Shown here: one piece after another, positions 33,353 to 41,061 of the stretch
Position numbering within the stretch: position 1 is the stretch's first letter
How the letters are laid out: each line of letters opens with the position of its first letter
Assembly: GCA_963765145.1 (NCBI GenBank)
Contig: CAVXVG010000026.1
Location: forward strand, 32,001 to 96,000
Direction of reading: 5' to 3'
DNA length: 64,000 nt
Source: Parachlamydiales bacterium
Lineage (GTDB): Bacteria > Chlamydiota > Chlamydiia > Chlamydiales > JAJFMK01
Program-made: the position numbers and the translations under genes
Notes under the pieces: generated by a model
What the model was told of the DNA's origin: nothing
What the model saw: only the letters and a program-made list of their open reading frames with translations
Databases searched by the model: none

Positions 33353-36125
33353 ATGAGTCTTTCACCTTTGCTGCCTATTGCCTACCAACCTGTTATTAGC
33401 CGAATTGTAGGGGAGGGGATTCCTCAGGGTGTTTAAGAGGCCGGATGGTTCTCTACGCGCCACCCACTCGACCATCGGTGCAGTGACCTTGAAGAGTTTT
33501 TTCCCTCTGAGGGAAGAGTTTCTAAGATCGTCTGAACATTCGTTTTTTTCTTTGAGTGGCCGTACTGTCACTGTGCATGTGAAAGGAATAGGAGGCGGTG
33601 GAAAAGGCTCGAAAATGAAGGTGAGGGAGCCGCAAGATTCGGCACAGTTAAGCCAGTTTTTAAGTACAGCCAATAGTTCTTCAAGCTCACCTGTCTCCTC
33701 TGTTTTTTCTTCCAATGTTTCGGAAGCGCCGGCTATCGCAAGTTCGCTTGAGGAAGATCTTCGCAAAGGAAATCATCCGGCTCTTGCTAATAAGGGGAAA
33801 GCATTGCTTCGTCTTGCAACGGAAAACCCTCCTCAAGATCCTTATCTTGTCGTTCAACATCTAGTCAATGCGATCACCTCTCCCCTTGCTCAAGGATTGG
33901 ATATCGTCATCAAGACAAAGCTGGCAGAGGCCCTCCACCGCTATGTCGACCTCACAGTGCTCAAATATTCAGTGCAAGAAAACAAAAAAGTATTGGGAGA
34001 TGGCAAACAAGAGATCTACGCTAAACTAGACAGCGCTCTTTCCCTTGTGGAAGACGAGTCATCTCAAAATAAACTGACGCACCATTTAGCTGCTTCTCAA
34101 GCCGGCCTTTACTCGCTGAAAGATACCACCCCTTTGGTGCAAAATAGTGTGATCGCCATTGTAAAGTTTGCGGCGGCAAAGGATGTGGGCGCCGGCCTTG
34201 CCCTTTTGAAACAGCTGGTGGACGAAAAGAGAAGATCGGACGAAGCAGATTGGTACATCGGCTTGATGGTTGTCCGCTCCCTCATCGAGATCAAAGGCGC
34301 TGCAGATACCGATTTCATCCTCGAGGAGGTGATCAAAGCTCTTGCAGACAATAAAGAATGGAAATTCCTCTTTGGCGGTGTCGAGGCGTTAGCTTTTTTT
34401 GTCCAACAGGGCAAAACACGTTCCATCCGAGGGCTTGCTTTTGGGGCGCTTCAGCGTTTTATTGTTTTTGATGAATTTCAACTCAAAAACAATTGGCGGT
34501 TACGGGCTGCTGCCCTTGAATGCCTCATCGGCCTGTTTGGCACAGAGGATGAAACGCTCAATGACCAGATCAAAGCAAAACTCATCGAGCGTGAGGCGAT
34601 AGAGACAGATGCACGTGTGCGTTCCTGCTTCAGTAGGCTAGAAAAAACAAAAGAGCTCCAGCAAGCGTGGGACAATCTGCTCAAAGAGGGGGGATATGAA
34701 GCGCTCATCGCTGCCGAGCAACAAAAACTCTCCTCTTCTCTTGCAGCGCTTGAGAGCAAAGAAAAAGAGATGGATGCAAGCGCGTTCTTTGCACTAAAAG
34801 CGGAACTCAAAAAGCAACAAAGCGCTCTGACCGAAAGGCAAGAAGCTCTTGAGAAAAGCCACAAAGAGCTCTCGAAAAAAGTGGATGCTCTTGCAACTGC
34901 ACAGCAAAAAACCGATGCCGTTGTTCAAGATCTTAAACAACGGCTCGATGCAAGAGAGGCCTTTTTTGATCCGGCCCTTCCAGCTTTTTTCCGCGTTCCA
35001 AACAGAAATTCTACTTTTGTTGGCCGCACCCAGCTTTTGACCACGATTCGAGACCGTTTTTCAGAAAAGACCCGCTCAACTCTCCAGGTTGTTCTTGCAG
35101 GGGAGAGGGGAGTGGGAGCTGCAGCCCTTGCGACAGAGTACCTTCACCAAAGAAAAGGGGACTACAACTTAGCGTGGTGGATTTTTGGCGCACGCCCCTA
35201 CGATGGGATACGGGACCTTGGCCTTGCCCTAGAGATCGGATTAACCCCCTCCGATCCAAGAGAAAAGGTCATCCGAGCGGTCAAAGAGCACCTCCAAAAA
35301 AATGAGGGATGGCTGCTGGTGTTTGCCGGTGTGGAAAACCCCGAGGAAGTTCAAAACTTCCTCCCGGCATCCGGGGGGCATGTCATCATCACAACCCCTA
35401 ACCTTGTAAAAAACAGCATTCCGGTTCCACCACTGCTTTCAAAAGAGGCTACCGACCTGTTTGTCAAACTCACAGGGGTTCGGGATGTAAACAAGGCAAA
35501 AGAGCTTGCAGCAACGTTGTTGCATAACCCCACAGCGATCGCTTTAGCTTCAGCCTACATCACCTATAAGCAGAGCTTTTACTTTGCTTACTTGACAGAG
35601 TTTCAAAAAATTGCCGGTACAAATACTCCATCCTCCTTATCGAATGTGCTTGCCCCCCTTTGGAAGATCACCTCGCAAGAGCTACAGAACGAACGGGCCA
35701 GGTCTCTCCCGCTCTCTTACCGAGCGGCTTTTTTTGACCCTCTCAATATTCCCAAAAATTTCTTAGTCGATGGCCCTTTGTCATCACAGCAAACCCTAGA
35801 TGTCAACCGCTCTTTTCTCCTTCTCAAGTCGTACGGAGTCCTTTTAGCCGCAGAGCAAGGGCTTGCCTTTTCCATCTCTCCCCTTCTTCAAGAGGCTATT
35901 CGGAACGCTCTTTCTGAAGAAGAGAAAAAGGCCATCCTCAGAGAATTATTTCTCACACTAAAAAACGAGTGGAAATTCTCCAAAAATGACCCCTCTACTT
36001 GGAAAGATGCCAGATTCTATGCGCCCCACATTGCGGCCTTTTGCACTCACGCCAAACCGTTCCCCGAATTTCGCGAGCAAATCCAAGCACTCACCCAAGA
36101 TTTAACCTTCGTTTCCACAACCTAA
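33353..36125 (+). CDS. Di-Gly leader + helical-repeat + coiled coil + degenerate NB-ARC protein (probable frameshift in G-run ~33415)
   Basis: ATG at 33353 (MSLSPLLP...) joins ORF 33429 if one G is removed. VPNRNSTFVGR and GGHVIITT are NB-ARC hallmarks. Confidence 0.75.
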
Positions 36126-36131
36126 GGATTT

Positions 36132-40800: not shown

Positions 40801-41061
40801 GCTCTTCCCCATTACAAGGAGTTTTTAGAGGTGATGAAGCGCAGTCTTGGGGGAAACCATCCGCATGTAGCGCTTGCCTATTATCACCTGGGAATTTGTT
40901 ACATGAACACAAGCGAGTTGGACACTTCCATCCAGCATTTTTCCGATTCTCTGCGCATCTATGAACAATGTTCTCCTCAAGATGTCCAAGCCATCAACCG
41001 TGTTACAAAAGGCCTTGATATTGCAAAGCAGAAAAAACTCTCTACCGTGACTTCTTTCTGA
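37813..41061 (+). CDS. Di-Gly leader + NB-ARC + TPR protein
   Basis: GTGGMGKT, WCLVFDNAE, LGHLPLALTQA and LHRLIQ, followed by many TPRs. Confidence 0.9.
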   Translation: MTGVYVNPLLVQGQYSIHRDPESGALFGLIQGRKVIITGVSSSLSEKHFHQAKEALANCKLAEENGALTVQLKLMGGGSKGSKMRRPNSAPAPASGPAPTATVPANRGTEIVLASHWSVPKKNGDFVGREKLLSDISKQLKSSSKTILAGTGGMGKTSVACEYLYRHRNDYPFLVWWISADSPMNGFLDLGIELGVAKVGDKAQEVVEAVKGYLESQSNWCLVFDNAEKPADLQPFLPSKGGHILITSRNPHWQESINVDVFAPEESKELLTRLTGQPEAGSEALAELLGHLPLALTQAGSYIKTTQTSYAGYIDLFEQVRRELWQDETAPKDYSLTVGTTWKISVEKIRGQLPEALEVLYKSAYLYPNNIPSSLLIGLGEDELGFQKKLHILQSYSLLVAQDAGLYSLHRLIQTTTRDDLKVKQTQEILHKLLDAFKKEWVFNTEDLSTWESADTLVEHLKVFCTHIAQEKSMRIGRFIFLAGLGNYFHFSRTNLDQAALYANELIAMYQEEGQTPPPFVLLNLGRISLSQGNYAAAVDSLSRASALSGDGVEQDLTLTVAIEVVLGNAYLAQGEMKKAERCFKKALERADTTSHQSVAGALLGMAKLLALQGDSVQATTCMARAFEEYKQAYGEESYHLCDIYEQNGVNWLSQDPPQFALALECFQKGLELTRKTLGEKHLKFGMFLSTMGKIHHGLGNDAEAIRCHTQEIEIYKACLKMPHPVFISSYSGLGMAYQGQGNKALAIQYCKTALEISEALAGGDTPQSIETELCLSEVYIEQKNYDEAFKHTKAAIEGQEKLFGKRHPLLIKSYLTLGTICEDQNNLDLAERYLILASELCAEHNKPFDSSNGFTLGNVYFEQAKLDLNQGKHQLAIDKFLKALELFRKYEENGKSLAVVLLELADTYERLKDPKEIEYLSKYADFMRAKGNLPTLTGVLEEIAKKTRARGDLTTLIKTLEELVTIRRAGGDTVKLTATLHELATLYLSQQAYARALPHYKEFLEVMKRSLGGNHPHVALAYYHLGICYMNTSELDTSIQHFSDSLRIYEQCSPQDVQAINRVTKGLDIAKQKKLSTVTSF

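Follow-up and report, generated by a model that had tools for sequence, protein, structure and literature searches.

The 64,000-nt window analysed here is C26:32001-96000 of the chlamydial genome G000, an assembly of 2.68 Mb that is 85% complete; all coordinates below are positions in this window unless a contig label (C..) is given. Between a ccsA-like and a resB-like gene it contains a cluster of four genes that begin with a common N-terminal domain, here called the leader, together with a RING gene. Each of the four leaders ends in a di-glycine (33591-33596, 36342-36347, 37453-37448 on the minus strand and 38038-38043), which is followed at once by GGKGSK in gene 1, GCVPSR in gene 2, GSSSSK in gene 3 and GSKGSK in gene 4. 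The first-pass annotation had reported a di-Gly followed by G-x-x-x-S-K/R in all four genes, and all four motifs were located where it had placed them. The residue directly after the di-Gly is numbered +1 and the boundary is written GG|. The parts of the four genes are the following:

33353..33596, plus strand: gene 1 leader, ending in GIGG and 81 aa long in P0008, a database allele; the assembly has a frame break near 33420
33597..33614, plus strand: putative cryptic N-terminus of gene 1, GGKGSK (G-x-x-x-S-K)
33597..36125, plus strand: gene 1 payload, with a Ser-rich linker, a probably helical region, a coiled-coil-like stretch and a degenerate NB-ARC-like ATPase
36132..36347, plus strand: gene 2 leader, 72 aa, ending in LKGG
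36348..36758, plus strand: putative cryptic N-terminus of gene 2, GCVPSR (Cys at +2), then the start of an NB-ARC domain; the gene is truncated
36902..37447, minus strand: putative cryptic N-terminus of gene 3, GSSSSK, with a basic patch and a small payload
37448..37729, minus strand: gene 3 leader, 94 aa, ending in LQGG
37813..38043, plus strand: gene 4 leader, 77 aa, ending in LMGG; modelled as strands, helix and hairpin with a predicted local distance difference test score (pLDDT) of 81
38044..41061, plus strand: putative cryptic N-terminus of gene 4, GSKGSK, then a basic and Pro/Ala linker, an NB-ARC-like ATPase and a TPR array

The frame break of gene 1 is absent from P0008 and from the contigs of three of four sequencing runs, the fourth having no coverage there. 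P0008 is an intact natural allele of 923 aa, which starts at the 33353 ATG and is 99.7% identical downstream. The gene 1 payload matches Pfam AAA_16 with an E-value of 0.007 and, in a phmmer comparison, the NB-ARC of gene 4 with 3.5e-48. Gene 2 breaks off inside the NB-ARC domain, where a dispersed palindromic repeat lies, and the syntenic gene in the same-genus genome G001 encodes 1657 aa. The payload of gene 3 has no Pfam match.

A lack of mutual similarity among the leaders had been named beforehand as a possible refutation. The similarity turned out to be real though weak, with pairwise E-values from 2e-5 to above 1 and a median leader identity of 28%. A chance origin of the four motifs can be excluded, because GGGxxxS occurs at residues ~50-125 in only 6 of the 2306 other open reading frames (ORFs) of G000 and Ser is found at +5 in only 55 of 488 background GGG sites. 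Genes 1 and 4 both read KGSKM after the motif and hence are not fully independent of each other.

A hidden Markov model (HMM) was built from the four leaders without the GG and everything downstream of it and was searched against the 2318 ORFs of G000, as the first-pass annotation had proposed. This search gave five non-seed matches at E<=0.002, all of which end in GG|G, and four of the five carry Ser at +5 (p 7e-4). Next in rank come a GG-less copy (E 0.1) and a copy with GG|GESEE that ends in a CaaX motif (E 0.63). Together with two further copies, which were first picked by the motif itself, G000 contains 13 leader copies. GG|G is present in 12 of them and Ser+5 in 10 of these 12, as compared to 55/488 in the background. 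The Gly codons of the GG vary synonymously, a sign that selection acts on the protein and not on a DNA site. Seven of the nine copies outside the window precede TPR and/or NB-ARC-type domains, and the other two have no Pfam match. No signal peptide or lipobox is visible by eye in the 13 copies. Close to the start of a large STAND protein (C21:192922-197970, minus strand) there is only a short ITLNSPRQGG|GSQAT segment, which may be what is left of a leader, and the protein's paralogue in the window (26596-30285) has no segment of this type.

Outside G000, four of the five long non-seed matches to the GG-free profile end in GG (two in G001 and one each in G187 and G268). They continue with GxxxS in both G001 proteins, Leu in G187 and Met in G268. 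The fifth match is an unrelated coiled coil and was rejected. The G001 orthologue of gene 1 has a leader that is 38% identical and retains GG|GSSSSK, and G268 carries four leader genes in tandem. In a scan of 400 genomes of the phylum with a 43-row profile, in which up to 13 candidates per genome were scored so that all counts are lower bounds, the leader was matched in at least nine genomes belonging to seven families. Among the matches listed there was none in the 29 genomes of a family with ~1.1-Mb genomes. Weak profile matches in G034, G302, G154 and G318 were partial or unrelated and were rejected as well. The leader profile had no match in five Cardinium/Amoebophilaceae genomes, nor in 201 genomes of that order, and a tblastn search of plasmids with the leader found nothing.

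We also searched 1.84 billion database proteins with a 17-row profile that included the GG. Of the 57 matches, nine repeat-driven partial ones were dropped and the GG-less allele P0012 was set aside; the removal of 15 seeds then left 32 new homologues. Their payloads comprise U-box, OTU, LRR, ankyrin, TPR, NACHT/STAND and WD40 domains, and GTPase-like and patatin-like payloads of leader proteins were recognised by eye from their motifs. The earlier description of one leader before different payloads was thus borne out, as the same portable domain precedes diverse payloads and the GG is kept in homologues that were found without it in the profile.

The leader is a domain of ~80 residues with [L/G/M]-x-G-G at its end. 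The GG is invariant in the 43-row leader alignment and no other residue is. In the 32 new homologues, position +1 is occupied by Met (14), Gly (8), Ala (3), Val (2), Ile (2), His, Leu or Cys (one each), and never by Pro or by Asp, Glu, Lys or Arg. The 14 Met compare with a background frequency of 1.6%, and none of these 14 homologues has Gly at +2. P4 is Leu in 21, Gly in 9 and Met in 2. Ser+5 is found in 6 of the 8 homologues with Gly+1 and in only 3 of the other 24 (Fisher p 0.002). Such a pattern, with a restricted +1 and Ser+5 tracking Gly+1, is expected of a cleavage site; to judge from the alignments, the residues after the GG look like a processed N-terminus. Ser+5, whose conservation had been set as a test beforehand, is frequent in the G000 copies and in distant homologues with Gly+1, but not in those with another residue at this position. 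The proposed myristoylation signal is present as G-x-x-x-S in most G000 copies and applies to only a subset of the family, as most distant homologues have Met at +1. A C-terminal CaaX motif ends 3 of 47 leader proteins, none of which has GxxxS, versus 6 of the 2318 ORFs of G000. These six ORFs lie at C21:78137, C21:189977, C21:13876, C28:60763, C9:10485 and C14:6953; three of them have an extra upstream Cys and are candidates for host prenylation.

The closest counterparts of the leader were found in Amoebophilus. According to the accessible parts of two publications, its prodomains APD1 and APD2 follow a signal peptide and lipobox and are shared by diverse effectors (PMC3482391, PMC3417536). 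They have been proposed to be anchoring or clustering modules, and the account of the prodomains, as far as it is accessible, mentions neither a di-Gly nor cleavage nor myristoylation (PMC3482391). We rebuilt a lipobox-prodomain family from A. asiaticus 5a2, likening it to APD1/APD2 by the published text and not by their alignments. The family has 77 matches in that genome and is present in 26 of 48 genomes of the taxonomic family. In part of the A. asiaticus match set, aligned with a profile lacking the last five columns, 52 of 59 full matches end in [LIV]xGG, and +1 is Gly in 28, Met in 17, Ser in 4, and Cys, Val and Ala in one each. Like the leader, APD1/APD2 form a constant N-terminal domain before variable payloads (OTU, U-box, STAND NTPase, GIMAP GTPase), and the rebuilt family ends in G-L-x-G-G followed by G or M. 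Unlike the leader copies of G000, they follow a signal peptide and lipobox.

The homology of the two families was difficult to settle. Comparison of the full sets gave a probability of 0.8-2.6%, which was not above shuffled controls in three of four shuffle-controlled local runs. A 15-sequence bridging set aligned end to end over 78 columns with an E-value of 0.002, above all 40 shuffles, and over 71 columns without the tail with 0.007. One Amoebophilaceae protein combines a signal peptide and lipobox with a chlamydial-type leader and RMRGG|M (E 9.5e-7). The APD profile had no convincing match in the 400 phylum genomes. On these alignments, we put homology of the leader and the A. asiaticus prodomain family at an even chance or a little better; without homology, this di-Gly design would have arisen on two occasions. 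A prodomain copy also occurs within a 2413-aa A. asiaticus protein directly before GG|M. Copies inside long proteins that are followed by GG|M include L265 (G411:C1:~396843-397115, G411 being A. asiaticus 5a2) and P0063, and these proteins look in sequence as if they were polyproteins. In an OTU lipoprotein, L216 (G434:C5), the lipobox is soon followed by RLLGG|M and no prodomain can be recognised, which suggests that the tail motif can stand alone.

We consider it fairly likely that the leader is a removable pro-domain that is cut after the di-Gly in trans, with myristoylation of a subset of the released proteins. In this mechanism, a portable folded pro-domain would precede unrelated host-directed proteins of an intracellular bacterium, which would probably be exported by type III secretion. 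A trans-acting protease, most likely encountered in the host cytosol once export is complete, would then cut behind the di-Gly and release a protein with a eukaryote-compatible N-terminus. N-myristoyltransferase prefers Gly1 and Ser5, and the host enzyme would add myristate to the G-x-x-x-S N-termini, which are those of most G000 copies and of all four genes. A neighbouring Cys or basic patch could serve as a second anchor, placing the NLR-like NB-ARC/TPR proteins on host membranes. With Met or another small residue at +1, the cut would merely free the payload, and some members carry a C-terminal CaaX instead. The enzyme would most likely read the linear LxGG tail and not a ubiquitin fold, and could be a deubiquitinase-like peptidase of the host or one that the bacterium secretes. 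It would have to act in trans, because the payloads are mostly not proteases, only the GG is invariant and one leader serves many payloads. Autocatalytic cleavage was rejected, as the alignment has no invariant catalytic residue, and thus no invariant nucleophile, besides the GG and +1 is G or M. No YopT-type protease family is among the payload matches listed.

The gene content of G000, which includes SctV, points to an environmental chlamydia. G000 also has genes for USP-type (C21:7422, C21:243742, C18:72046) and OTU (C26:257593) proteins. The tail-tube family PF06841 was found in none of 11 phylum genomes and in two of five Amoebophilaceae. A reading of the GG codons before Met as a Shine-Dalgarno sequence was rejected by reasoning on spacing only.

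Several observations weigh against the proposed cleavage and lipidation. No candidate protease occurs in every carrier genome checked: USP-type genes are found in three of four and OTU genes in four of five, and C48 and C5 peptidases in none of four and none of five, respectively. An N-terminal domain that is stably folded can be an obstacle to type III export. The G000 copy at C29:62495 has no GG, the Gly at P4 of 9 of the 32 homologues is unlike ubiquitin, and in the A. asiaticus prodomains only 5 of the 28 cases with Gly+1 have Ser+5, which makes for a weak myristoylation consensus. Furthermore, the GG was part of the profile that gathered the 32 homologues, several of which share source contigs of equal length. 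The homologues are therefore not independent and paralogues inherit motifs, so the p-values given above are overstated. Finally, the G001 orthologue of gene 1 escaped the leader profile and came to light only by reading the locus, and the distribution of the leader is for this reason a floor.

Of the other explanations, the one that survives best is that the leader is never cut and serves as an export, chaperone-binding, anchoring or clustering module with a flexible Gly hinge. This is in line with what has been published for APD1/APD2 (PMC3482391, in its accessible part). In two AlphaFold models of leaders (pLDDT 81 and 91.5), four strands are followed by a helix and a hairpin, after which the GG tail is free, and the better model is a compact unit; Gly-rich linkers are also common in general. 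However, a hinge leaves unexplained why P4 is a fixed hydrophobic residue or Gly, why there are exactly two Gly, why Met is enriched and Pro, Asp, Glu, Lys and Arg are missing at +1, and why Ser+5 is tied to Gly+1. We regard an uncut leader as unlikely.

Less likely still is that a bacterial peptidase cuts the leader before or during export, in the manner of C39-ABC double-glycine leaders, which would leave host myristoylation possible. A GG|X site is the hallmark of C39 substrates and weak C39-like matches are present in 6 of 11 genomes. However, only one of the 11 is over the cut-off, and the two matches that were inspected are stand-alone proteins of ~250 aa in an unrelated conserved operon, without an ABC fusion. 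No C39-ABC transporter was found in the 11 genomes, of which G000 is 85% complete, and no peptidase gene is evident near the leader genes in the ORF lists of G268, G001 and G187 as read by eye. In addition, the order of elements in the pLDDT 91.5 model is E-E-E-E-H-E-E, with a strand and not a helix before the GG.

The first-pass annotation had taken the leader for a mimic of ubiquitin, possibly with a beta-grasp fold. A true mimic of this kind would be recognised by host deubiquitinases through its fold. The size is similar, several tails read RLRGG or LRGG, and a gene of the same-genus genome G001 (G001:C1:1611577-1611993, L047/L048) encodes two tandem ubiquitin-family domains, so that such capture does occur in the genus. 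In ubiquitin, two strands precede the helix and a longer segment follows, whereas the leader models have four strands before the helix and a mere hairpin after it. VIA-align comparison of the two models gave no match at Z>=5 (best Z 3.6 and 4.7) and listed no ubiquitin-like chain. For the pLDDT 91.5 model, which was compared to 48,161 chains, none of the best 50 was ubiquitin-like, and the best match (Z 4.7, root-mean-square deviation 3.9, 78 aligned residues) was to an unrelated chain. Foldseek, run twice against the PDB and once against BFVD, returned nothing at E<=0.001, and the ESM Atlas gave no usable match for the leader. No ubiquitin-like Pfam family was listed at E<=1 for 43 leaders, PF00240 had no match in G000, and no Pfam family is common to the leaders or to the Amoebophilus domains. 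Null fold searches do not prove a new fold. Nevertheless, the models lend the ubiquitin-fold reading no support, and we find true mimicry very improbable. It is hardly credible that the GG marks a gene-capture junction, at which captured genes kept their start Met when they were fused, and that the motifs are relics of this history: Met is indeed frequent at +1 and the payloads are very modular, yet such a junction predicts GG-M-G-x-x-x-S, which Gly+2 in 0 of 14 Met+1 homologues and GxxxS members without Met contradict, and the synonymous Gly-codon variation speaks for selection on the protein.

The surroundings of the cluster bear what may be traces of its arrival. It lies inside a cytochrome c assembly locus and is bounded by a direct repeat:

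33151..33192, plus strand: left copy of the direct repeat (42 bp) on either side of the gene cluster, 93% identical to 42732-42773
42732..42773, plus strand: right copy of the 42-bp direct repeat
36728..36806, no strand: perfect 29-bp inverted repeat at the end of gene 2, a member of a dispersed genome repeat

Part of resB recurs as a degenerate copy near the cluster edge (41051-41242 vs 42936-43129). With this flanking copy and the 42-bp repeat, the cluster seems to have been inserted into the locus with a duplication. The dispersed palindromic repeat is ~80-130 bp long, has copies on C5, C29, C21, C2, C20, C27 and other contigs, and is possibly a miniature element. Nearby eukaryote-like genes without a leader encode a protein with TIR, two NB-ARC and TPR domains (26596-30285), a RING protein (41336-42508) and a BTB-LRR protein (24577-25824). 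An RHS-repeat protein (5056-9726) and an autotransporter-repeat protein (508-4842) lie elsewhere in the window. On contig C35 of G000, parts of the window's ccsA/hemN region recur in a somewhat different form, which indicates a strain mixture in the assembly. The two sequencing runs that best match G000 are peat metagenomes (shares 0.62 and 0.53), and the host of the organism is therefore likely to be a soil protist.

A broader picture, which we offer tentatively and think somewhat doubtful, is that chlamydiae and Amoebophilus/Cardinium share an ancient pro-domain without a ubiquitin fold that feeds their effector repertoires into a host di-Gly protease. This would give effectors eukaryote-style N-termini (a free Met or a myristoylatable Gly), would release lipoprotein-tethered effectors from the bacterial surface, and maybe hijacks a protist pathway for host LRGG|G NLR-like proteins. 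The arrangement had been called undescribed. We found no description of a di-Gly-cleaved effector leader in the literature searched, most subscription papers being outside its scope, and the accessible part of a 2026 review of bacterial ubiquitin-system effectors (PMC13720258) contains nothing on such leaders. The novelty thus concerns the cleavable leader, since shared prodomains on diverse effectors have been published for Amoebophilus (PMC3482391, accessible part). If the cleavage reading is correct, symbionts of protists give their injected proteins N-termini ready for lipidation or turnover via one reusable cap and not via self-cutting proteases, and the Amoebophilus prodomains, with 77 matches in one cultured strain, would be release signals rather than anchors. 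It further predicts that there is a di-Gly protease with no need for a ubiquitin fold, and that bacterial NLR-like proteins are anchored to membranes within a eukaryotic cell. The leader would also help to recognise effectors by sequence in uncultured chlamydiae, for which they are poorly predicted.

Three known systems invite comparison. In C39/PCAT double-glycine leaders, a GG|X boundary separates leader and cargo, but the leader described here is beta-rich and folded and precedes large, eukaryote-like cargoes, and the 11 genomes gave no C39-ABC transporter. In ubiquitin and ubiquitin-like fusion precursors, an N-terminal unit of ~76 residues ending in a di-Gly is removed to give a defined first residue, and Pro is absent at +1. 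The leader resembles these precursors in its C-terminal di-Gly (12 of 13 G000 copies), in its size and in the absence of Pro at +1. It differs from them in that it has no detectable sequence or fold likeness to ubiquitin, its genes are bacterial and its P4 is often Gly. The YopT-family type III effectors AvrPphB, ORF4 and NopT lose a pro-region in the host and thereby expose embedded acylation sites that target them to membranes (PMC2708883, accessible part). Here too a pro-region would precede an embedded acylation motif, as judged from the G-x-x-x-S consensus pattern in 10 of 12 sequences. However, those effectors are cysteine proteases that process themselves, whereas the payloads of the leader are mostly not proteases and one leader serves many unrelated payloads. 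By analogy, the leader probably works like a ubiquitin fusion or the pro-region of AvrPphB, while belonging to neither family.

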